Source: a virus (Duplodnaviria > Caudoviricetes). From it: a DNA stretch of 64,000 bases. The stretch lies in IMG/VR virus record IMGVR_UViG_3300032227_000570, positions 1 to 64,000 of that record. The stretch is one strand, 5' to 3'. Within the stretch, counting starts at the first letter, position 1. The number at the start of each line of letters is the position of its first letter. Both the position numbers and the translations under genes were made by a program. The notes under the pieces were generated by a model that saw nothing but the letters and a program-made list of their open reading frames with translations, was not told the origin of the DNA and did not search any database. Positions 11,203-53,039 of the stretch are shown here, piece by piece.

Positions 11203-12606
11203 ATGTCAAACACAACAACAACTCCGTACTCTGTTCTAATCACTTCACAATCACCTGTCGTTGGCACACTTCGCCAATACTTAGTTGTTGCTAATACAAC
11301 AACTGATGTTCGTGTATGGACTCGCACAACAAACGGCGGTCGTGGTGAGAGCAACGCTTGGTTCGATAGTAGTTACCAAGAGTTGCTACAACTTACTTAC
11401 GGTGATGAAAGCATTGTTGGCGAAATCCTTTCGTCACCACTATCTATTGTTGATGAGCAAGCAATAGAAAGTAATACACGACCAAACATACTTCTACAGA
11501 AACTAACAAAGCAGTTTGGTTTGCGACAACAGACAATTAGCAATCGCAAACTTGCTGATGTTGTTGTTGAAGTCGAGCAACTTATTTCACAGAACCCATT
11601 GAAGTTATCTAAGTATCGTTCTGACGGTCGTTCTGATAAGTCTGCTATCGCAACACAAACACCTGCACCGCAATCACTACCTGTGCAAGTTGTTCGTGTT
11701 CCTGCACCGCAACCTCTCGGGGTAGAAACTTCTGTAGAAGTTAATGGTGAGTTTGTTGCACTTATCCCTAGTGCTGAAAGCGTTGCAGGTTATGTAACTC
11801 GTACCTTTGATGATGGTGTTGATGAAGTTGCGTTCTATGACTTCGCAATCAAACACAAAATCAACATCATGATTGAAGGTGAAGCAGGTACAGGTAAAAC
11901 AACTTCTGCAAAGCACTATGCGTATCTCCGACAGTTACCGTTCTATTCGTTCTCGTCTAGTGTCGGTGCTGAATACTCACAGTTGTTTGGCAAAGTTATT
12001 ATCGGTGATGACGGCAAACCAACATGGCAAGACGGTGCAATTACACAACTTTGGAAAACAGGTGGTGTATTGCTAATTGACGAAGCAAACTTCTTGCCAC
12101 CAAAACTTGCTTCTGCACTTCACAACGGTCTTGATGATAACCGCAATCTAACTTTGCTTGACCACAAGGGCGAAGTAATCAAGGCTCACCCAAACTTGTT
12201 AGTGCTTGCTTCGTACAACGAAGGTTATCGAGGTACTAACAAAATGAACCAAGCGTTCGCAGACCGTTTTACTAAGTTGCGTTTCGCTTATGACATCAAC
12301 ATTGAAAAGAAGTTTATTCCTTCTAAATCATTGTTGGAGTTGTTCCAATCTATGCGAGCAGACGCATTGAGTGGTTTGTATGAAACACCACTATCAACTC
12401 GTTTGCTAAAGAAGTTTGTGTTACTTGCAAAAGAAGTCGGTTACAACTTTGCAGTTACAGAACTTCTAAATAACTTCGCTGATGATGAGCGTGGTTCTGT
12501 TCGTATGTTGTTTGAGGCAAAGCGACACAACATTATGAGCGAACTCGGTTTCACAGTTGAAAGTATCTCTGTTGATACAGGTGATGAAGCATTAGTTAAT
12601 AACTAA
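11203..12606 (+). CDS. MoxR/CbbQ/NorQ/CobS-like AAA+ ATPase
   Basis: Walker A GEAGTGKT, WQDG, Walker B LLIDEAN, AHPN..ASYN.GY.GT..MNQAFADRF. Confidence 0.9.
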   Translation: MSNTTTTPYSVLITSQSPVVGTLRQYLVVANTTTDVRVWTRTTNGGRGESNAWFDSSYQELLQLTYGDESIVGEILSSPLSIVDEQAIESNTRPNILLQKLTKQFGLRQQTISNRKLADVVVEVEQLISQNPLKLSKYRSDGRSDKSAIATQTPAPQSLPVQVVRVPAPQPLGVETSVEVNGEFVALIPSAESVAGYVTRTFDDGVDEVAFYDFAIKHKINIMIEGEAGTGKTTSAKHYAYLRQLPFYSFSSSVGAEYSQLFGKVIIGDDGKPTWQDGAITQLWKTGGVLLIDEANFLPPKLASALHNGLDDNRNLTLLDHKGEVIKAHPNLLVLASYNEGYRGTNKMNQAFADRFTKLRFAYDINIEKKFIPSKSLLELFQSMRADALSGLYETPLSTRLLKKFVLLAKEVGYNFAVTELLNNFADDERGSVRMLFEAKRHNIMSELGFTVESISVDTGDEALVNN

Positions 12607-12617
12607 TTGCTAAAGAA

Positions 12618-12654
12618 GTTGTGGTGGTGAGTTGTTGTTGCTCACCACCACAAC
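12618..12654 (+). terminator. perfect 14-bp stem-loop without U-tract
   Basis: gttgtggtggtgag/ctcaccaccacaac. Confidence 0.55.
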
Positions 12655-12668
12655 ACCGCAAAATAATT

Positions 12669-12681
12669 TCGGGATAGAAAA
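12669..12681 (+). promoter_or_regulatory. TCGGGATAGAAAA motif
   Basis: Exact copy 40 bp before the vWA start. Confidence 0.6.
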
Positions 12682-12708
12682 AATACACACACTATCGAGA
12701 GGCAAAAA

Positions 12709-14712
12709 ATGATACCTGCAACACCACAACTATCACAAGAAACAATCACTAAAGAACAAGCACTTGCAAATCAGAAGCGTGACAAACTAACACGACTTGC
12801 ACAGGTGTTTAGTCGTGCAAACTCTGTACTCACTTCACGACTTATCAAGGTTCATGTTGTTGATGATAAGCAAAAGAACGCACCTGCTTGGTCAGGTGCT
12901 AGTGATGTTTATTTCAACTCTGCACAAGTGCGTGATGAGTTTGACGCACAATCTTTGTTATCACTACAAGGATTAAACTTTCACGAACTTGCTCATGTTC
13001 GTTACACACCACGCAACGGTACTGAAATCTGTCGCTGGGTCATTGAGGAAAACAAGTGGCAAGCGTTCAACGCACTAGAGGACATGAGAATTGAAGGCTT
13101 GTTAGTTTCTCGTTTCCCTAGCGTTGCTAACTGGCTTACTGCAACTGTTCTCGATTACTTAGTGCGTGAGGAAAAAGCAATCACAACTTTGTATGCACTT
13201 GTTCGTGGTCGCAGATACCTACCAATCGAAATCCGCACTATGGCTAGAGAGAACTACGCAATTCAATCTGACTTAGATGAGTTGTGTGATGTTGTTGATA
13301 GTTACCGCAAGTTGTTGTTCCCCGAGGATACAGAAGTTGCTAAAGAACTTATCACTCGCTATCACAACTTGTTAGAAAACTTGCCAATCATTGACCAACC
13401 ACAAAACGGTAGTGGTAACGGTGAAGGTGGAGAAGGCGAAGGTACAACAACAGTTACCGTTCGTATCTATGACCCTAACGGTCATGCAGACCGACCAACA
13501 CAAGGTGTCGAGTCAAGCAACTCACGACCTGCACCAAAGTCAGAGCAAGTACAAGACCGAGATAACTTGCCTGATGTTGCTGATAGTGATGAAAGCAAAA
13601 CCGCTAAATCAAAATCAGATGTTGTTGTTGATGTTTCTTTAGAAGCAGAACCAACAACAGAACAATCAACACCAACAACACCACAACCAACTTCTGATGA
13701 TGTTGATGATGTTGATGATGTTGATACTGACTTTGATGATGAGTTTGACTTTGATGATGAGGACTTCAACTCTGACTCTGACTCTGATAAGTCTGACTCT
13801 GTTTCTAATACAAACGGTGGCAACGGAATTGGTACTGGTACTGATGATGTTGCTAAAGACAATCAAGTTATCAACGACTTGTTAGATGAAATCGTTGATG
13901 AACTTTCTAAAGAACTTGACCGTCTATCCGTACAAGTAAATGGCTCACCACTACTCACAGGCAACGGTGCTAAAGAACCTAGCAAGGCTGATTACAACGA
14001 AGTACCTGTACCACAGGACTTGTATCTAGTTGCTAAGTCTTTCGCAAAAGAACTAGAGCGACTTCGTGCTAACTATGACCCTGCTTGGAATAAGCAAGTT
14101 GATAGTGGTCGCTTAAATGTTGCTCGTTATCTTAACGGTGATGATTTCGATACCGTCTTTGATGAGTGGCAAGAAGGTCGTGATGATGTAACTGCTATAG
14201 AAGCAGTTATCTGTCTTGACTATTCAGGAAGCATGAGTGGTTCTAATGCTGATAATGCTTACAAGTCTATGTGGGCAATTAAGAAGGCGTTAGAAAATGT
14301 AAATGCTCGTACAACAGTTGTGTTGTTTGACCACAACACAAGACTTCTTTACGGTGCTGATGAAAAGGCAGGTAAAACTATTCGTGACGGTGGTGCGAAC
14401 GGTGGTACTGACCCCGAGGAAGCGTTGTTGTATGCACAAAATGTTCTCGCTAATTCAGAACAACCAATCAAGATGTTGTTCATGATTACTGACGGACATT
14501 GGGATAGTCCTAAAGGTGAGGAAGCAGTACGCACCATGAAGCAAGCAGGTGTCCTTACTTGCCAATCACTAATCGGTTTCGGTTCAAGAGATTTAGAACC
14601 TTACCGTCACTCGTTCGAGTTGCTCGCTGGTGTTGAGAACGCAAGAAGCCTTCTCTCATTGGGTCGTGACCTAGTGCGACTTGCTATCGCACGACAGTTA
14701 GTAACTCGCTAA
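12709..14712 (+). CDS. CobT-like vWA protein with N-terminal HExxH domain and acidic linker
   Basis: HELAH, FNALEDMRIE, MIDAS DYSGS...GGT...ITDG; adjacent to the AAA+ gene. Confidence 0.9.
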   Translation: MIPATPQLSQETITKEQALANQKRDKLTRLAQVFSRANSVLTSRLIKVHVVDDKQKNAPAWSGASDVYFNSAQVRDEFDAQSLLSLQGLNFHELAHVRYTPRNGTEICRWVIEENKWQAFNALEDMRIEGLLVSRFPSVANWLTATVLDYLVREEKAITTLYALVRGRRYLPIEIRTMARENYAIQSDLDELCDVVDSYRKLLFPEDTEVAKELITRYHNLLENLPIIDQPQNGSGNGEGGEGEGTTTVTVRIYDPNGHADRPTQGVESSNSRPAPKSEQVQDRDNLPDVADSDESKTAKSKSDVVVDVSLEAEPTTEQSTPTTPQPTSDDVDDVDDVDTDFDDEFDFDDEDFNSDSDSDKSDSVSNTNGGNGIGTGTDDVAKDNQVINDLLDEIVDELSKELDRLSVQVNGSPLLTGNGAKEPSKADYNEVPVPQDLYLVAKSFAKELERLRANYDPAWNKQVDSGRLNVARYLNGDDFDTVFDEWQEGRDDVTAIEAVICLDYSGSMSGSNADNAYKSMWAIKKALENVNARTTVVLFDHNTRLLYGADEKAGKTIRDGGANGGTDPEEALLYAQNVLANSEQPIKMLFMITDGHWDSPKGEEAVRTMKQAGVLTCQSLIGFGSRDLEPYRHSFELLAGVENARSLLSLGRDLVRLAIARQLVTR

Positions 14713-17815: not shown

Positions 17816-18682
17816 ATGGATAACAAACCAAAAGAGATAGTTAGAACAACAAGCAAGAACATAACACTTCGTTGGAAACTTGTTGAAGGTCAAAAGAAGG
17901 TACAGAACCAACACCAAGAGTTGCCTAAAGAAACTGGAGACCTTCTTAGAGGACTCTCAACACTTGCTGAACGCAGAGCCTATTGCCGATTGCTAGTTGA
18001 TAAAGGTTGGACACTACAAAGTATTGCCAACGAACTGTTTGTCACTAGAGAAATGGTAAGACTCTACACAAAGCATGAGGATAGCGACTTGTTTGAGATT
18101 GTTTCTCACCTTCCTGTACCTGATGTACCTGTTATTACAGAACAGGTTTATGTTCGTACATGGGTGGAGATTGACCCACAGGTTCTAAAGAGGTTAAAAG
18201 AACTTCAACCATTAGCACAACAGGTTCGTAGCCATAGTCCTCGCTATCGTGCAGAGGGTGAGGAATACACACGACTAATTGCTGGTGAGATAGAGCGTGG
18301 TGTTCTTAGTTGGAAAATTGCGGAAGCACTTGGTGTAACTCATGGTGCGATTAACTTCCGTATGACTCGCTATGGATACAAGCCGATTGGTACAGGTAAG
18401 ACAAAGGCTTATCAACCAATTATCGCTAGTAACAGAGCAAAGCGTTTCGTAGAGCCTAACCCAACTTCTTTAGCAAGATTGTTAGAGTTAAAAGAGTTAG
18501 GTCTAAAGAAAAACTTTACGACAAATCCTGATGTTGTACAAAGAGATGATGAGTTTAACGAACTTCTTGCTAAAGAAGTTGAGGCTGGTGTATTCAGTTA
18601 CGACTTGGCTAAAGCAGTTGGCTTATCTCAACAAACAATACAAAACCGATTAGAACGAGCAAAGAAAACAAAGGGGGCATAG
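17816..18682 (+). CDS. multi-HTH DNA-binding protein
   Basis: Three HTH-like segments: WTLQSIANELFVTREMVR, SWKIAEALGVTHGAIN, SYDLAKAVGLSQQTIQ. Confidence 0.75.
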   Translation: MDNKPKEIVRTTSKNITLRWKLVEGQKKVQNQHQELPKETGDLLRGLSTLAERRAYCRLLVDKGWTLQSIANELFVTREMVRLYTKHEDSDLFEIVSHLPVPDVPVITEQVYVRTWVEIDPQVLKRLKELQPLAQQVRSHSPRYRAEGEEYTRLIAGEIERGVLSWKIAEALGVTHGAINFRMTRYGYKPIGTGKTKAYQPIIASNRAKRFVEPNPTSLARLLELKELGLKKNFTTNPDVVQRDDEFNELLAKEVEAGVFSYDLAKAVGLSQQTIQNRLERAKKTKGA

Positions 18683-20369: not shown

Positions 20370-20570
20370 ATGGCAATTAAACATTACCTAGTGGAGTTGG
20401 TTACGGAAGTACCAATCACTATCAACGATAGCGACCTAATTGACAATTCTGTCTATAGAACTGTCTTTCAGGCTACGCAGAAGTACATAGACGAATACAT
20501 AGATACTGATGAGCAGTTTTCTATGAAAATCGTTGCTGACGCTAGTGATAGCGAATTAGAAAATGCCTAA
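20370..20570 (+). CDS. hypothetical protein
   Basis: ORF track. Confidence 0.65.
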   Translation: MAIKHYLVELVTEVPITINDSDLIDNSVYRTVFQATQKYIDEYIDTDEQFSMKIVADASDSELENA

Positions 20571-21078
20571 GTTAAAAGACATAGCGGTCATAGTCCGCAA
20601 ACAAGAGAAAGAACAGGTTATGTCAAACCAAATCACCACACCACAGGTTCAAGTTAAAGAACCTGTCACACCGTCACAACCAAATCACACAGACTTCAAC
20701 AAGAAGGGCTACACCCTTGTTGCTAAAGAAAGAGTGATGAACCCTTCGGGCAGTTACTTCAAGAGCCTGAGTCGTGTTCTGTTAGAGCATGAAACAGACA
20801 AGACTTCACTCGAACTGTATGGGTGCGACTATTGCCTAAGCCTGTCCTCAACATTGACAGGAATACGCATACACATTGGTCATGTCCATAACCGACAGAA
20901 AATGGGTAGCAAGACAGTTTCTAAAGAACTAAAGAAGCAAGCCCATGAGCAAGTCGTTACCAACAACCCTGTTGAGGCAATTCAAGGACTCATAGCAGAG
21001 TTGGAATACTGGAAAGACCTAGCCCAATCTCACGAAAAGCGATTGGCACAAATCCGTACGGCACTAACAACAAAGTAA
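20563..21078 (+). CDS. C2H2-type Zn-finger protein with coiled coil
   Basis: YGCDYC...IRIHIGHVH. Confidence 0.65.
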   Translation: MPKLKDIAVIVRKQEKEQVMSNQITTPQVQVKEPVTPSQPNHTDFNKKGYTLVAKERVMNPSGSYFKSLSRVLLEHETDKTSLELYGCDYCLSLSSTLTGIRIHIGHVHNRQKMGSKTVSKELKKQAHEQVVTNNPVEAIQGLIAELEYWKDLAQSHEKRLAQIRTALTTK

Positions 21079-21390: not shown

Positions 21391-21591
21391 GTGGAAGGCT
21401 GGCTAACTACTAAAGAAGTTTCTGAAAGGTCAGGTCTAAAGAAGGACACGCTAAAGACTTATCTACATGAGAAGCAAATGCCTCAACCCGACCATTATTT
21501 TTCTCGAACACCTGTTTGGAAAGAGGAGACTATCGAGAACTGGATTAACACACGCAGAAAGATAAAGCCCATACCTTCTAAAGAAGAATAA
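21391..21591 (+). CDS. excisionase/AlpA-like HTH protein
   Basis: WLTTKEVSERSGLKKDTLKTY...MPQPD..FSRTPVWKEETIENW. Confidence 0.8.
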   Translation: MEGWLTTKEVSERSGLKKDTLKTYLHEKQMPQPDHYFSRTPVWKEETIENWINTRRKIKPIPSKEE

Positions 21592-21597
21592 CAAGAG

Positions 21598-21631
21598 AGC
21601 CACCCAACGATTTCCGTTGGGTGGTTTTTTT
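21598..21631 (+). terminator. intrinsic terminator
   Basis: agccacccaacg/cgttgggtggtt + T-run. Confidence 0.8.
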
Positions 21632-21692
21632 GTGTCATTTTGCTACTGGTGAGTAACTTGATAAAGTAGGGAACGAGAGAAGGAGGAAGCCA

Positions 21693-22985
21693 ATGGCGTA
21701 TGTCGTAACCCGAAACAAACGGCACACAGGCTATTACCGCAGAGGCGGTAAGGTCGTGAGTGCTGGAACTTACCCCACAAGGTCTAAAGCCTTGAACTCT
21801 GCTCTCATGGCAGAGGAAGGGGTTGTATCCGATAACCCTGAACTAATGACCACACTTGAAGCCTATGTAAAAGAGTGGCTGACCACCCGAACAGATGTTC
21901 GGGTCATAACAAGGAAAACTTACGCAACCGCCTTAAAGAAGTATGTCTTACCTTCTTTGGGAACTAAGCGGGTCACAAGCATTACTCGGAGAGATGTAAG
22001 ACAACTCTTTGAGAAGTTGCTTAATGAAGGCGTAAGCCCTGCCACCGTATCCCATGTCAAAGTTGCTTTGGGTTCTGCCTTCCGCCAACTGGTTGAAGAA
22101 GATGTCATAGCAGTCAATCCCACGCATGGGGTAAAGGTCAAGACTTCTAAAGCAGACCCAAAGCCTTCTTTAGAGCCTAATGACTTCAAGAAAATCGTGT
22201 CCCATCTGGAAACAGAAGGGGCAAGACTATTCGCTCAATTCCTAGTGACGAGTGGCTGCCGATTTGGAGAAGCCACAGAACTAAGGGTTAAAGACTTTAA
22301 CTTTCGTTCTAAAGAAGTTTATGTCAGACGAACCGTTAGTGATGTGGGTAAAGCCTTGAACAATGGTGAGCGTTTCTTAGTTGTATCTGCAACAAAGAAC
22401 GGACACAAGCGAACAGTTGTTATTAACGAAAGCCTTAATAACACCATAAAAGCGTATGTTCGGGATAGAAAATTGCTCGCTGATGACCTCTTGTTTGCCA
22501 AACAAAGGGTTGAGGCGTGTAAAATAAAGCCAGCAGGGAGTCTCAAAGAAAGGACTACAAAGCCCTACACCGTTGGAAGTAGAACATTCCAACACGCAAC
22601 TCCGTACTCGTACAATGTCGGTGGGTGTAGGTGTGACCTGTGTAAGCAAGCGGTCAGTAAGTACCGAAAACAATACAGAAAGGACAAACCGAAAGGCAGA
22701 GAAAGCCTTAGTCAAAGCCAAAGCCTTGACCAAAGCCATCTCAGTCGTGACAAGTGGAGAGCCATTTGGAACGAAGCCATAGAAAAGTCAGGTATTGGTT
22801 GGTATCCAAGAACGCATGACCTAAGACATGCCAACGCTACTCAACTCCTAAAGAGTGGGGTAGATGTGCATGAGGTCAAAGAGCGTTTGGGTCATCAGTC
22901 AATCACAACGACAGAGCGGTATCTACACCGTATCCGTCACCAGCAGTCAAAGGCAGCCGAGGTTGTCGGAGACTATTTGGAGTAG
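21693..22985 (+). CDS. tyrosine recombinase/integrase with inserted Cys/His module
   Basis: Catalytic R (GCRFGE), K (ATKNG), HDLRH, LGH, Y (TERY); SAM-like N-domain. Confidence 0.9.
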   Translation: MAYVVTRNKRHTGYYRRGGKVVSAGTYPTRSKALNSALMAEEGVVSDNPELMTTLEAYVKEWLTTRTDVRVITRKTYATALKKYVLPSLGTKRVTSITRRDVRQLFEKLLNEGVSPATVSHVKVALGSAFRQLVEEDVIAVNPTHGVKVKTSKADPKPSLEPNDFKKIVSHLETEGARLFAQFLVTSGCRFGEATELRVKDFNFRSKEVYVRRTVSDVGKALNNGERFLVVSATKNGHKRTVVINESLNNTIKAYVRDRKLLADDLLFAKQRVEACKIKPAGSLKERTTKPYTVGSRTFQHATPYSYNVGGCRCDLCKQAVSKYRKQYRKDKPKGRESLSQSQSLDQSHLSRDKWRAIWNEAIEKSGIGWYPRTHDLRHANATQLLKSGVDVHEVKERLGHQSITTTERYLHRIRHQQSKAAEVVGDYLE

Positions 22986-23265
22986 TGATAACTATGAAAC
23001 TAACAAAACGTGGAAAAAAGGTAGTGGTGATAGCCACTATCGCAGTAGCAAGTTCTTTGTTCGGTAGCGGTTTTGCGATTGCCCGAGCATTAGAGCAAAA
23101 TCAGGCGATGGTTGTACAGCCAGTCCAACTATCCCAATCAACAGTCGAGAAAGCCTTAAGAATAAGTCCTACAAAGAAGTTAGAGTTGTTGAGACAAAAG
23201 CCTCAACTAACAAGACTTGAATTGAAAGCCTTACTTAAGGAAGTTGGGTTTGAGGGTAAAGCCTT
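21786..23265 (+). repeat. cluster of nine co-oriented AAAGCCTT octamers
   Basis: Copies at 21786, 22160, 22350, 22429, 22702, 22720, 23150, 23225, 23258. Confidence 0.75.
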
Positions 23266-23557
23266 AAGCCAAGCGTGGGCTATTGCTATGCGTGAGAGTC
23301 GTGGTCGTTCTATTGCCTTCAACGGCAATGAAAAGACAGGCGATAACTCTTATGGACTCTTTCAGATAAACATGATTGGGAAAATGGGAGATGTACGCAG
23401 AGATAAGTTCAGCATGGTGTCTAATGCAATGCTTCTAGACCCTGTGACAAATGCCCAAATCGCTTATTACATGAGCGATGGTGGTAAAGATTGGTCTGCA
23501 TGGAAGGGTATGACCCCTCGTGCTAAAGAATGGCTAAAATCTTTTCCTAAAAACTAA
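22985..23557 (+). CDS. secreted lytic transglycosylase (lysozyme-like fold)
   Basis: Signal anchor; AIAMRESRG, SYGLFQIN, LLDPVTNA..AY..S.GGKDWSAW. Confidence 0.85.
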   Translation: MITMKLTKRGKKVVVIATIAVASSLFGSGFAIARALEQNQAMVVQPVQLSQSTVEKALRISPTKKLELLRQKPQLTRLELKALLKEVGFEGKALSQAWAIAMRESRGRSIAFNGNEKTGDNSYGLFQINMIGKMGDVRRDKFSMVSNAMLLDPVTNAQIAYYMSDGGKDWSAWKGMTPRAKEWLKSFPKN

Positions 23558-23631: not shown

Positions 23632-23775
23632 ATGGGAAAGCACCACGACAAGATTGCCAAGTCATTAGAAATCCGTATTGCCAACATGCCAAAAGGCGAA
23701 GGTTATAAAAAGCCTGGAAGCATGAATAAGAAAAAGACTGGATACAACGGCGTTAAGGCAAATAACGCTAAATAA
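23632..23775 (+). CDS. small basic protein (47 aa)
   Basis: MGKHHDKIAKSLEIRIANMPKGEGYKKPGSMNKKK...; gaaagga RBS; manual call. Confidence 0.65.
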   Translation: MGKHHDKIAKSLEIRIANMPKGEGYKKPGSMNKKKTGYNGVKANNAK

Positions 23776-23787
23776 GTTTCTAAAGAA

Positions 23788-23825
23788 GAAGCCCCGATAG
23801 CCTGTGCTATTGGGGCTTTTTCTTT
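23788..23825 (+). terminator. intrinsic terminator
   Basis: aagccccgatagc/gctattggggctt + T-run. Confidence 0.75.
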
Positions 23826-23836
23826 ATCATTTTCAC

Positions 23837-24241
23837 ATGTCAAAGATTGCTCACATGTTCAACCACCCAACACCTCACACTATTAGTGCTCATGCTTCAG
23901 GTCGTTCTTGGGATAGAAGCGTTGATTGGGATACTGCAAAACATGCGGCAAATCATGGAACAAGCGTTCCTCATAAGTCTGACGAAGGTAAGTTGGTTAC
24001 AGAAGGTCGTGACCCAAAGCAAAAAGACCACACAATTAGAATCGTTACTGACAATCCACCAAAGACTGTAATCACAGTAATTAGAGATACATCAAGACCG
24101 TTCAATCCAAATCTTTCTGCTGAACAGGCTGCTGCAGCACATAAAGAAGTTGCTAGAGCACAAACCTCAGCACAGCGTCAAAAGATGCAAAAGCAAAAGA
24201 AGCAACTTCGTTCTGCTCAAGCAAATAACAAGAACGCTTAA
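23837..24241 (+). CDS. DUF4258/RelE-like fold protein with basic helical tail
   Basis: ISAHASGRSWDRSV...IRIVTD...VITVI; leaderless TATCAT-N6-ATG at 23837. Confidence 0.6.
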   Translation: MSKIAHMFNHPTPHTISAHASGRSWDRSVDWDTAKHAANHGTSVPHKSDEGKLVTEGRDPKQKDHTIRIVTDNPPKTVITVIRDTSRPFNPNLSAEQAAAAHKEVARAQTSAQRQKMQKQKKQLRSAQANNKNA

Positions 24242-24405: not shown

Positions 24406-26447
24406 TATTGGTTGTCCTTTATCAGTTTAACTTCGCAAGCGTCTGTAGTGCAGTAAGCCTCTCCGATAGCGTCAGAAGCCATACCTGCATACACACCTGA
24501 AAAGTCTATAGGCATAAGTGTCATGCGACCTTCTTCGTACTCTTCCTCGGTAATCTGTGTGTAAGGCATTTGAGGATAGACGGTGTTACCCATAGGCAAG
24601 AACGAGATTGTCTTTAGTTGTCCATCGTGCATGTGAAGGATTGAAGCAATAGCGTCTGCTTCCTTCTCAGGGTCAAAGGTCACAGTTACAGATACAGAGT
24701 TATCTGACCAGTAGCGTTGAGTTACAACTGCTAAAGAAACCTTCTCATAAACGGAGACTTCCTTTTCCGCTCTCTTTGCGTTTGTCTCGATAGGAAAGAA
24801 CACCACAGAGGTTGTGTCAGGAGACTCTGAAGCAGGTTCAACTCTGTAGTTGCCCATCTTGAAAAGAGGAAGCATTGGGTCAGAGTTAGCAAAGCGAATT
24901 GCTCGGTTAAAGAACTTTCCACCTGAAGCCCAATGAACTCCAGGACTCTCACCAGCAAGGATTGAGACTGTGCCTGAAGGCTTAACAGTTGTCATCTTGA
25001 TTGACTGACGAATACCAAGCCACTCGGAGTAAGACTCATCGTAAGCCTTGACGGTTGTGTAACCAGCATCAAGCCAATCACGAAGCACAGTCCAGCCATT
25101 GTTGTCAGCAAAGTTAGCAATACCAGAGATTGAAGTTCCAATACGGCGATTGCGTTGCATGATTGCGTTGGTCTCTTCCCAGTGAGTTGGAAGAAGAGTT
25201 ACAGTCTTGGCATAGAGGTAAGCAAACTTCAAAGTTCTTTTGAAGTCTTCTAAAGAATCATGGCGATTGAGATAGGTCTCAACCAAAGTACAGCACTCAA
25301 AAGACTCAAGGCTTTGTTCTGCACAAGGGTTGTACCCTGATACACGCCAGTCTTTGTTGTTAGGTGGGTCAATGAGACGACCATACTTGCGTGATACATC
25401 CATCCACACAACCCCAGGCTCACCGTTACGGACAATGCCGTCAATAATCTTTGAGAAGTCTGAACCGACCTTAGCCTCTACAGAGTTGTTAGACATCCAT
25501 GCCCAGCCTGGGTTGTTAGGGTCATAAGAGTTACGTTCAGGATAAACCTCGGCGTTCTTTAGATTGAGGAAGTCCTCATCGTCAATGCGACCGATAAGAA
25601 GTTCTGCTGAACGGCGAACATTGCCTGATACAACGCAGACACCAATCATGTTGCCAATGTCAGCAAGGTCTTTGCGTGTAACTTTCTGTCCCGAACGACC
25701 AGCAAACAACTTCTCAATGTGGTCGTGTAACTTCTTTAGAGGCTCATGCCCTGCTGCCGTACCACCAAAGATTTTGATAGGAGAGCCAGCAGGTCGAACC
25801 AAAGAGTAGTCAAAGGTGTAAAGAGGTTGGTCAGGCTTTAAGAAGGAGTTAATCTGTAGAACCACAGACTCGACCCAGCCTTCACGAGTATCAGGCACTT
25901 GATAGACCTCGGTTAGTTCTACTCGTGGCTCATAGATAGCGAACTCTTTGTCCGCACCCTTATCGTCAAACCCAACTCCAACGCCTAGCATTGAGGCTTC
26001 CATGAGGAAGGCAAATGGCTTGGCAGGGTTGTTCTTGGTCATCTCCATTGTGGAGACAAATGCACAGTTCTGTAGTGCTGCGGAGTTACGCTGTTCATTG
26101 ACTAGGGGAGTTCCCATAACCCAGAGACCTCTCCCTGGCGGAGTCCATTTCAATTCAAAAAGACGGTCGAAGGCTTCTTTAGCAGAAGCCTGAGCCTTAG
26201 CATCATTCCATGGAAGACGCTGAGATTTAGCATGGTCTTTCTGAAGGGAGTACATGCCGTTGATGACACGCTCACACACATCTACCCAAGTCTCTTTAGT
26301 CCCATCTTCCTTTAAGCGGGAGTAGGTTCTTAAGAAGGTAATCTCTCCAACCGAGTTACCTGCAGCATCCCGATAGCCAAATGGGGCTTTCTTAGAGCGG
26401 TATCCTGCTACGAAATCTTCGGTCAAACGGAAAGAGAAAAGAGACAT
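24405..26447 (-). CDS. nrdJ: class II adenosylcobalamin-dependent ribonucleotide reductase (monomeric type)
   Basis: RTYSR, PPGRGLW, LQNCAF, GNVRRSA, NPCAEQ, TTVKPSGT, C-terminal CTTDAC. Confidence 0.92.
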   Translation of the reverse strand: MSLFSFRLTEDFVAGYRSKKAPFGYRDAAGNSVGEITFLRTYSRLKEDGTKETWVDVCERVINGMYSLQKDHAKSQRLPWNDAKAQASAKEAFDRLFELKWTPPGRGLWVMGTPLVNEQRNSAALQNCAFVSTMEMTKNNPAKPFAFLMEASMLGVGVGFDDKGADKEFAIYEPRVELTEVYQVPDTREGWVESVVLQINSFLKPDQPLYTFDYSLVRPAGSPIKIFGGTAAGHEPLKKLHDHIEKLFAGRSGQKVTRKDLADIGNMIGVCVVSGNVRRSAELLIGRIDDEDFLNLKNAEVYPERNSYDPNNPGWAWMSNNSVEAKVGSDFSKIIDGIVRNGEPGVVWMDVSRKYGRLIDPPNNKDWRVSGYNPCAEQSLESFECCTLVETYLNRHDSLEDFKRTLKFAYLYAKTVTLLPTHWEETNAIMQRNRRIGTSISGIANFADNNGWTVLRDWLDAGYTTVKAYDESYSEWLGIRQSIKMTTVKPSGTVSILAGESPGVHWASGGKFFNRAIRFANSDPMLPLFKMGNYRVEPASESPDTTSVVFFPIETNAKRAEKEVSVYEKVSLAVVTQRYWSDNSVSVTVTFDPEKEADAIASILHMHDGQLKTISFLPMGNTVYPQMPYTQITEEEYEEGRMTLMPIDFSGVYAGMASDAIGEAYCTTDACEVKLIKDNQ

Positions 26448-26509
26448 TTATAAAGCCTTTCGGGTTATGGGGGAAGTGCTAAGTAAAGCGTAAAAGGTGT
26501 TGCAATGCT

Positions 26510-52095: not shown

Positions 52096-53039
52096 TTGTT
52101 TAGTTTCCCTTCATATCGCTCTAAGTATTTTCGTCCGACAATGGTGTTATCGAATGCCCGACCATCCGAAGCATAGACGAATTGCTCGCCGTCGTCATCT
52201 ACTGGGTTGGTGAGTCCGATGTTCTCTCGTGCCTTGTTCATGTGAGTACGGAACATCGCAAGGTATCGCTTGTAGAGGTGTGGTGCCTCATCGCCAACAT
52301 CTTTGAAGTTCTTCTCATCGACCATAAACATTTTAAGGATTTCCATTTCGACCAGGGCTGTCGTTTGGTATTGCTTCCGCATCTTTGCGAGTGCTCCCGC
52401 CAGATGGTTTACATTCACGGTGCCTGGCAGCCACGGGAACTTACGACCTACAAGGAAGGAGAACTCGGCTGCAACATCACGGGTTGTCCACTCTGTTACG
52501 GGTCGCTTGCCTCGGGTCTTGGTGTCCTTCTTGGAGGGCGTGGACCTCGGTGACTCGTCGGCAAACTTTCCGATTCCGCCCACTTGCTCATCCTGCTGCT
52601 GCTCTTGTTTCCACGACTTGTTCATGGTCTCCTCATCCACTTTTTGGATTTTTATATTTTCATTACTTATTAACTTATTAACTATATGGCTATTAGGTAG
52701 GAGCACTAGACCATCTGGTTCATGTGTTGTTAGCCTCTGTGGAGGCTCACTAGAGCCTATGGACGTGAGCCTCTGTAGAGGCCCACACAAGGTGTATTGC
52801 GAAGTCGTATAGAGGCCCCTATTGCGTTTCCGTCTCGTGGCGACGAGATAACCCGCATCCTCTAAAGCCTTCAGAGAGGCTTTGACGTGGCTCTGTGCTG
52901 AGACCTTAGTCAGGGCGGCGAGATGACCCACGGAGGTCTCTATGACCCCTTTGCGGTCTGCTAGATGGCAGAGTACGACTAAGAGACGGAACTGGTAATG
53001 GGTCAGTTCCGCCTCTAGTAGTTCGTCAGGGATGTTCAT
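52092..53039 (-). CDS. replication initiator-like protein (N-terminal winged HTH)
   Basis: FRLLVVLC..AD..G....S...LA..T..S...V..SLK.LE..GY; upstream of the DnaC-like loader. Confidence 0.7.
   Translation of the reverse strand: MNIPDELLEAELTHYQFRLLVVLCHLADRKGVIETSVGHLAALTKVSAQSHVKASLKALEDAGYLVATRRKRNRGLYTTSQYTLCGPLQRLTSIGSSEPPQRLTTHEPDGLVLLPNSHIVNKLISNENIKIQKVDEETMNKSWKQEQQQDEQVGGIGKFADESPRSTPSKKDTKTRGKRPVTEWTTRDVAAEFSFLVGRKFPWLPGTVNVNHLAGALAKMRKQYQTTALVEMEILKMFMVDEKNFKDVGDEAPHLYKRYLAMFRTHMNKARENIGLTNPVDDDGEQFVYASDGRAFDNTIVGRKYLERYEGKLNK
52641..52783. other. candidate replication origin inside the initiator gene
   Basis: Two palindromic AGCCTCTGTRGAGGC repeats (52732, 52768) beside an AT-rich tract 52641-52695. 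Confidence 0.55.

Follow-up and report, generated by a model that had tools for sequence, protein, structure and literature searches.

Octamer Cluster in the Integrase-SLT Unit

The stretch of DNA analyzed here (the window: 64,000 nucleotides, positions 1 to 64,000 of the Caudoviricetes record IMGVR_UViG_3300032227_000570) carries nine exact copies of the octamer AAAGCCTT between positions 21786 and 23265, all on the + strand and all inside two neighboring genes, one for a tyrosine recombinase (int) and one for a membrane-anchored lysozyme-like protein (SLT). We show that this array is a real, selected and strand-specific cis-acting word in the two genes; most likely it serves as a set of protein docking sites. 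The source record is 99,799 bp long and its first 123 bp are repeated at its end, indicating a circular assembly. Together with a short open reading frame (ORF), int and SLT form one insulated transcription unit, because strong terminators bracket them, and the exact and near copies of the octamer fill precisely this unit.

Relatives were collected in two IMG/VR scans, which gave 67 loci with an Int homologue, sorted into three groups: a dense clade (the window, L001, L002, L003-5, L023 and L026-28; 76-90% Int identity), a sparse clade (67-71% Int identity) and an outgroup (55-64% Int identity). The unit is made up as follows (aa, amino acids):

21591..21633, + strand: strong terminator upstream of the unit, shared by the dense clade and the outgroup but missing from the sparse clade
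21693..22985, + strand: tyrosine recombinase (int), 430 aa; Pfam Phage_integrase (1.9e-29) and Phage_int_SAM_3
22985..23557, + strand: membrane-anchored SLT_3 lysozyme-like protein, 190 aa; Pfam SLT_3 (3.9e-18)
23632..23775, + strand: Lys-rich ORF of 47 aa, the last of the unit, with homologues in L002 and the outgroup
23782..23825, + strand: strong terminator closing the unit

The copies of the octamer, exact and near, are the following:

21786..21793, + strand: octamer 1, int K-A-L, residues 32-34; word kept in the dense and sparse clades
22160..22167, + strand: octamer 2, P-K-P-S phase; only in the window, L001 and L002, other relatives having DPTSSLE or DPFITLE
22350..22357, + strand: octamer 3, K-A-L; in all dense-clade members, the sparse clade having IGK(E/D/K)(A/S)NN
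22429..22436, + strand: octamer 4, E-S-L phase; the L003 group carries the one-mismatch form AAAGCCTC
22702..22738, + strand: tandem array with octamers 5 (22702) and 6 (22720) and two AAAGCC half-copies
23150..23157, + strand: octamer 7, SLT K-A-L; VEKELKI in the sparse clade
23225..23232, + strand: octamer 8, SLT K-A-L; ECKGLLK in the sparse clade
23258..23265, + strand: octamer 9, SLT K-A-L; word kept in the dense and sparse clades
23197, 23609 and 23709, + strand: one-mismatch copies within the transcription unit, AAAGCCTC at the first two positions and AAAGCCTG at the third
22559 and 22732: further near copies, AAAGCCCT and AAAGCCAT, respectively
25308..25315, - strand: octamer in sense orientation in the gene for a class II ribonucleotide reductase (RNR), within the invariant NPCAEQSLE peptide; possibly an outlying member

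The original prediction, made from the letters of this DNA, had reported the nine exact + strand copies, the three near copies at 23197, 23609 and 23709 and an 18-bp tandem in the recombinase gene. All nine were found again where it had placed them, the near copies are real one-mismatch forms, and Tandem Repeats Finder (TRF) delimits the tandem at 22702-22738.

Selection at the Nucleotide Level

Counting both strands, the window holds 15 matches to AAAGCCTT against 3.4 +/- 2.0 in dinucleotide-preserving shuffles, none of 100 shuffles reaching 15. In the complete genome (99.8 kb) there are 14 copies on the + and 3 on the - strand, and their density is not uniform: when all genome 8-mers are ranked by copies per 1.5 kb, with collagen-like and other tandem repeats set aside, AAAGCCTT comes out as the most clustered. 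Nine of the 17 genome copies fall inside the two genes; the remaining eight lie outside the unit, three of them in sense orientation and five antisense or intergenic.

Codon choice does not account for the cluster. Permuting synonymous codons within both genes, with the proteins fixed, gave a mean of 0.61 copies, and redrawing the codons from genome usage a mean of 0.33, against the 9 observed (3000 trials each; maximum in any trial, 4 copies). The word depends on rare codons: GCC accounts for 10% of Ala and AGC for 11% of Ser. Its nine copies occupy all three codon phases (K-A-L five times, E/Q-S-L three times and P-K-P-S once), as had been claimed, hence they do not form a peptide repeat. 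The intervals separating them are uneven (18 to 430 bp). Conservation at synonymous positions, by which the prediction could be judged in relatives, is evident as well: where the window and L002 share residues, 27 of the 28 codons overlapping the word agree, compared with a fraction of 0.72 for other codons. All clades conserve the RAKAL peptide (Int residues 30-34), yet its spelling with the octamer is confined to the dense and sparse clades.

In the RNR gene, the EQSL codons are CAA AGC CTT in six of six dense-clade cases, CAA AGC CTA in the sparse clade and CAR TCN CTN in the outgroup, where the octamer occurs in 0 of 15. We considered the sense octamers of RNR as proof that orientation follows transcription and rejected them in that role as weak evidence, since EQSL is one synonymous step from the sparse state and VKPS is spelled with common codons.

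Gain and Turnover of Sites among Relatives

Within the unit, dense-clade genomes carry 8-12 copies, all sense and zero antisense. The sparse clade has 2-5, usually at nucleotides (nt) 96 and 756 of int and at SLT nt 1575, and the outgroup 0-5, nearly all in the tandem array at int nt 1006-1140. Codon alignments revealed that the additional dense-clade sites arose by amino acid substitution, for example in Int (TDPFITLE to ADPKPSLE, IGK(E/D/K)ANN to VGKALNN and FGNNTI to FAKALV) and in SLT (VEKELKI to VEKALRI and ECKGLLK to ELKALLK), and sites were also gained through 12-nt tandem additions. Sites 467, 736, 756, 807 and 866 come and go within the dense clade, while the total stays steady at 8-12. 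The process is thus caught across three sister clades (~0-5, ~3 and ~10 copies), with the turnover of sites visible. To our knowledge, a coding sequence bent by nonsynonymous change to carry a regulatory word has rarely been seen.

In six dense-clade genomes we collected 46 distinct site contexts, which lie on one strand throughout. Information content drops steeply beyond the eight letters, and the base that follows the octamer is a purine in 43 of the 46, partly because TTR encodes Leu. A second word, TAAAGAAGT, was considered in the sparse clade and discarded, being a purine-rich coding word that is common throughout the block of + strand genes, without a cluster.

Tandem Array and the AAAGCC Word Family

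The array at 22702-22738 (TRF period 18, 2.1 copies) encodes an (S-x-S-x)n linker that follows the Cys/His insert of Int. Its size ranges from 2-4 copies in the dense clade to as many as ~9 units of AGC-AAA-AGC-CWT (S-K-S-L/H and variants) in the outgroup, and AAAGCCTT is one variant of this unit. Contigs from two other freshwater studies, ~95% identical to the window over 3.6 kb, are longer by two 12-nt units, at 22701 and 22717; array copy number is therefore polymorphic today among near-identical strains.

In most outgroup loci, array words are also present in the 40-50 nt between the SLT stop and the terminator, where they are untranslated; among them is a 21-mer that occurs letter for letter in the int array, where it is read S-K-S-H. 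In L069 and L046 the post-SLT words are read in a different frame and yield a Lys/Ala tail (K-A-K-A). This tail is in frame with SLT in L069 (5303-5930) and L046. Most outgroup relatives (L060:5890-5950, L053:5880-5940, L048:5850-5910) show instead, after the SLT stop, a conserved A-K-A-K-A-I-A-K-A-G-A frame with its own TAA, which may be a tail that was cut off recently; otherwise it is a read-through or frameshifting candidate.

The shorter word AAAGCC is enriched on the + strand of the unit, with 6.5-8.8 copies per kb in dense-clade genomes; sparse-clade values are 1.4-3.7, and those of most outgroup members 3.7-5.6. By comparison, the flanks hold 0.1-1.4 per kb and the opposite strand of the unit ~0-1. 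The AAAGCC word family therefore predates the dense clade, and it acts at the DNA or RNA level and is no protein feature. Taken together, the synonymous shuffles, the conservation at synonymous sites, the gains through amino acid changes and the presence of the same words untranslated or in another frame in relatives establish the AAAGCCTT cluster as a nucleotide-level signal under selection.

Genomic Context

Genes upstream of the unit include the following:

20370..21078, + strand: C2H2-type zinc-finger/coiled-coil protein, a candidate reader of the octamer, in the dense clade only
21391..21591, + strand: Xis-like HTH_17 DNA-binding protein, 66 aa; Pfam HTH_17, PHROG 597 and PHROG 66 (excisionase/regulator)

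The zinc-finger gene consists of two overlapping ORFs in the window (66 and 171 aa), of a 174-aa form in L001 and of a single ORF of 249-258 aa in L002, L003, L023 and L026. The + block encodes a MoxR-like AAA_5 ATPase paired with a VWA-domain protein (11203-14712), both conserved in all clades; such a pair also adjoins the zinc-finger homologue of an unrelated locus, L091. At 17816-18682 lies the gene for a 288-aa protein with three helix-turn-helix (HTH) motifs (residues ~62-82, 167-187 and 263-284), found in all clades at 38-58% identity, which is possibly another candidate reader of short repeated words.

The gap between the upstream terminator and int (21634-21692) contains an operator-like element, TACTGGTGAGTA, part of GCTACTGGTGAGTAACTTG; at the same gap, relatives from the dense clade and the outgroup show AGTTACT-N4-AGTAACT and repeated TTACTCGYTGGTAR. 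This element is likely the promoter/operator of the int unit.

Genes of the + strand stop at 24241, after which a - strand block opens with class II RNR and goes on to RecA, PolA, an SNF2 helicase, primase, DnaB, its loader and an initiator. The phage RecA (40744-41763, - strand; Pfam RecA 4e-47) is 83-99% identical over all clades and among the most conserved genes. The ribosome-binding region of RNR (26445-26460, - strand) reads GAAAGGCTTTATAAATG and contains the exact reverse complement of the octamer (26452); pairing between the two was considered and dismissed, as the complement is kept in L003 and L023 but is lacking in L026 and L028. About 25 kb from the cluster round the circle, at 94.6-96.2 kb, is the gene for the large terminase. 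The closest integrases of isolated phages are from actinophages (28-29% identity), and a DNA search against isolated phages gave no match.

Int as a Candidate Reader of the Octamers

The original prediction had taken the cluster for an array of protein-binding sites and had listed several kinds. Its first half stands as far as a nucleotide-level signal under selection is concerned, and from this signal we infer binding by a protein; among the kinds proposed, arm-type sites fit best, whereas parS, an iteron origin and a packaging signal found no support. In the general sense, docking sites for a protein on DNA are what we judge the array to be, somewhat more probably than not.

Int is the first candidate reader, because the word family is enriched in the unit of all clades and Int is tied to the unit in all of them. 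The protein is laid out as an N-terminal three-strand-plus-helix domain, a SAM-like core-binding domain and a catalytic domain with the Cys/His insert. Residues 1-41 are modeled as beta-beta-beta-alpha with a predicted local distance difference test score (pLDDT) of ~80, the remainder poorly; residues 2-45 weakly resemble AP2/GCC-box DNA-binding domains, and for residues 46-140 the alignment is to integrase core-binding domains, at Z 10-12. The arm-binding domains of both lambda Int and Tn916 Int have such a three-strand-plus-helix fold. In actinophages, the arm-type sites of integrases are short, asymmetric and multiple, often in direct orientation, and change fast between related phages (PMC3203893).

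We propose, tentatively and with less confidence than for docking in general, that the N-terminal domain of Int reads the octamers. The octamer belongs to the (AGC)AAAGCC... word family, which marks the integrase-SLT unit in a family of ~100-kb freshwater actinophages; its copies would then act on double-stranded DNA as arm-type (accessory) sites, unusually placed in coding DNA over 1.5 kb. Bivalent Int protomers might hold octamers by their N-terminal domains while their catalytic domains work on a nearby core site; alternatively, Int could coat and down-regulate its own unit. Were Int the reader, an attP-like architecture could span kilobases of coding DNA in phages without observed lysogeny.

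Several points weigh against this proposal. Known attP sites occupy 250-500 bp of noncoding DNA with 4-7 arm sites, compared with 9-12 sites over 1.5 kb of coding DNA here, and no core site or attB was identified. The alignment of Int residues 2-45 to AP2/GCC-box domains is weak (Z 4.0-4.4 and root mean square deviation 2.2-2.8, that is, Z ~4 over 45 residues), there is no Pfam arm-domain match, and the rest of the Int model has a mean pLDDT of 43. One L048-type lineage has zero octamers and few AAAGCC words, yet a similar Int N-terminal domain. Finally, the jump from ~3 to ~10 copies coincides with the gain of the zinc-finger gene, without an obvious change in Int.

Searches for traces of integration were negative within their scope. 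The window has no tRNA gene or fragment; 185,579 species genomes yielded no close relative or prophage, only an unrelated 46% fragment; and none of the 120 best Int homologues is on a contig longer than 107 kb, the longest contigs measuring 94-107 kb, and none lies inside a bacterial contig, the family being seen as free molecules of genome size. Metagenomic contigs over the unit showed no phage-host joints, two joints at 22161 and 22300 being discounted for short sides and low depth.

Alternative Explanations

A doubtful alternative is polar silencing of the stoperator kind, in which a monomeric protein, the candidate being the zinc-finger/coiled-coil one, would bind the octamers and block RNA polymerase through the int-SLT unit in an orientation-dependent manner. 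In all dense-clade genomes each octamer of the unit is oriented with transcription and confined to one terminator-bounded unit; a C-x2-C-x12-H-x4-H gene lies 0.6-1.1 kb upstream of int at every dense-clade locus examined and at 0 of ~22 others, is absent from four sister genomes that are 93-100% complete, and in the L003 group contains two further octamer copies. Actinophages also provide a precedent for oriented silencing words, as cluster A repressors bind >20 asymmetric 13-mers oriented with transcription, and reversed sites fail to repress (PMC9283540). However, the co-occurrence of zinc finger and octamer amounts to one clade and one evolutionary event, and the dense clade has at least five further genes of its own; the two zinc-finger subtypes differ at predicted base-contacting positions (T/T/G/I vs N/Q/A/H; 33% identity) in spite of the same octamer; the word family was enriched before the gene arrived; stoperators sit in short intergenic gaps genome-wide, not inside two genes; and the zinc-finger model has no fold match in the PDB. 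The language-model neighbors of the protein are C2H2 clusters. Searched with the zinc-finger alignment, IMG/VR returned a single more distant homologue (L091), which lacks an octamer cluster in its vicinity, and the JGI metagenomes only two already-known dense-clade loci. Among the ORFs scanned no immunity repressor of the L5 gp71 type was recognized, although no search aimed at such repressors was made. It is likewise improbable that the lineage which gained the zinc-finger protein rewrote two neighboring enzyme genes, including their residues, with ~10 oriented words read by that protein on DNA or mRNA; if so, this would be gene-specific, orientation-dependent silencing or tagging, of an origin independent from the cluster A stoperator repressors. 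Equally hard to favor is an RNA-level word, a kind of signal absent from the original prediction: AAAGCCUU in the int-SLT mRNA would control translation or decay of this message through an RNA-binding protein, small RNA or nuclease that reads it. This reading agrees with the sense orientation of every copy in a single transcription unit and with the position of near copies, and of the second array of the outgroup, in the 3' untranslated part ahead of the terminator. Mu Com, a phage zinc-finger protein that binds mRNA, speaks in its favor, and so, weakly, does a freshwater RNA library with 99-100% identical pieces of Xis, int and SLT, which may, however, contain DNA. On the other hand, the predicted unpaired probability of the octamer equals background in three genomes, no candidate small RNA has a word complementary to it, Rfam gave nothing relevant, only sub-threshold terminator look-alikes, and we know of no established precedent for multi-site reading along a bacterial coding region. 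Should the zinc-finger protein be the reader, or the word act on RNA, abundant uncultured freshwater actinophages would possess a new gene-specific layer of control. We also think it unlikely that the cluster is a nonadaptive by-product, seeded by the slippage-prone 6/12-nt repeat of the int linker through short-patch conversion or template switching and kept alike by conversion. Such an origin would suit an octamer that is a variant of the array unit, an array whose number varies between near-identical strains, the identical 21-mer in two outgroup arrays ~800 bp apart in different frames, the 12-14 nt that some dispersed sites share with array units (site 807 in L002, site 93 in L003) and a phage that encodes its own RecA. 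Yet the outgroup, with the longest arrays and thus the most donors, has only 0-3 dispersed copies, sharing stops sharply at eight letters for most sites, and the copies alter residues of two otherwise conserved enzymes, then stay conserved, all on one strand.

Still less probable is a cluster of Chi-like hotspots, where AAAGCCTT or its complement AAGGCTTT would be read by a host helicase-nuclease and protect replicating or packaged DNA. The formal match is good, the word being an octamer of near-uniform orientation, independent of frame and subject to turnover between relatives, and in phage LLS 20 Chi sites are in the active orientation vs 3, clustered near one end, with 32 vs 0 in MD8 (PMC12315714). 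Nevertheless, the cluster, 1.5 kb long, coincides with a single transcription unit, against >=10 kb beside a genome end for Chi; it is ~25 kb from the terminase gene round the circular assembly; RecA and replication genes are common to the dense and sparse clades, no difference in recombination modules having been found between them; and the word is not G-rich, unlike known Chi sites. To a centromere (parS), an iteron origin, a pac site or an ejection signal we attach the lowest probability of all. Short direct repeats are typical of each, and an array of 12-nt units inside linker-coding sequence is reminiscent of the origin iterons of lambda, of which there are four, 19 bp long, in the initiator gene O beside an AT-rich tract. 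ParB, ParA and FtsK-like genes gave zero matches in the complete genome (PF02195, PF13614, PF01656 and PF01580; controls positive), and parS was rejected for want of ParB or ParA. An HTH_36 initiator, an IstB-like loader, palindromes and an AT-rich tract lie at 51.0-53.0 kb, away from the cluster; irregular spacing speaks against an iteron origin and the distant terminase against pac. A link to the origin candidate at 52.7 kb was not sustained, since its palindromes share only AGCCT with the word, and the exact copy at 52864 was set down to a chance K-A-S-L-K-A-L stretch in the winged-HTH region of the initiator. Guide words of the FtsK/KOPS or TraB/clt type were dropped too: there is no FtsK-family gene, and of the outside copies four fit and four misfit a polarity converging on 24.2 kb.

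Comparison with Known Systems

If Int docks on the octamers, the nearest parallel is provided by arm-type sites, such as P/P' of lambda and those in the attP of L5, Giles and cluster K phages (PMC3203893). The locus described here shares with them short, asymmetric, multicopy words beside a tyrosine integrase gene, an integrase with an extra N-terminal DNA-binding domain (putative in our case), the commonly direct orientation and a fast change in sequence and number (PMC3203893). It departs from them in that the octamers lie within coding sequence, at the cost of altered amino acids, and number 9-12 over 1.5 kb and two genes, and in that no core, attB or integrated form was found here.

Cluster A stoperators also belong to actinophages, and they too are asymmetric words in many copies, in transcribed regions and with an orientation that follows transcription. 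They are 13-mers, intergenic, dispersed genome-wide and bound by an immunity repressor (PMC9283540), whereas here an 8-mer is limited to two genes of one unit and no such repressor was identified. The Chi-rich lambdoid phages LLS and MD8 resemble our case in that an oriented octamer, frame-independent and with turnover, far exceeds its codon expectation; their sites extend over many kb near the packaging end and correspond to a known host Chi (PMC12315714), while those of the window form a tight block in one unit, of a word not known as Chi.

The iterons of lambda gene O differ from the array described here, which lies in a recombinase gene 30 kb away from the candidate origin. They have in common with it the placement of an array of words, binding words in lambda, within a stretch that codes for a flexible linker, so that the same sequence is both a DNA signal and a protein.

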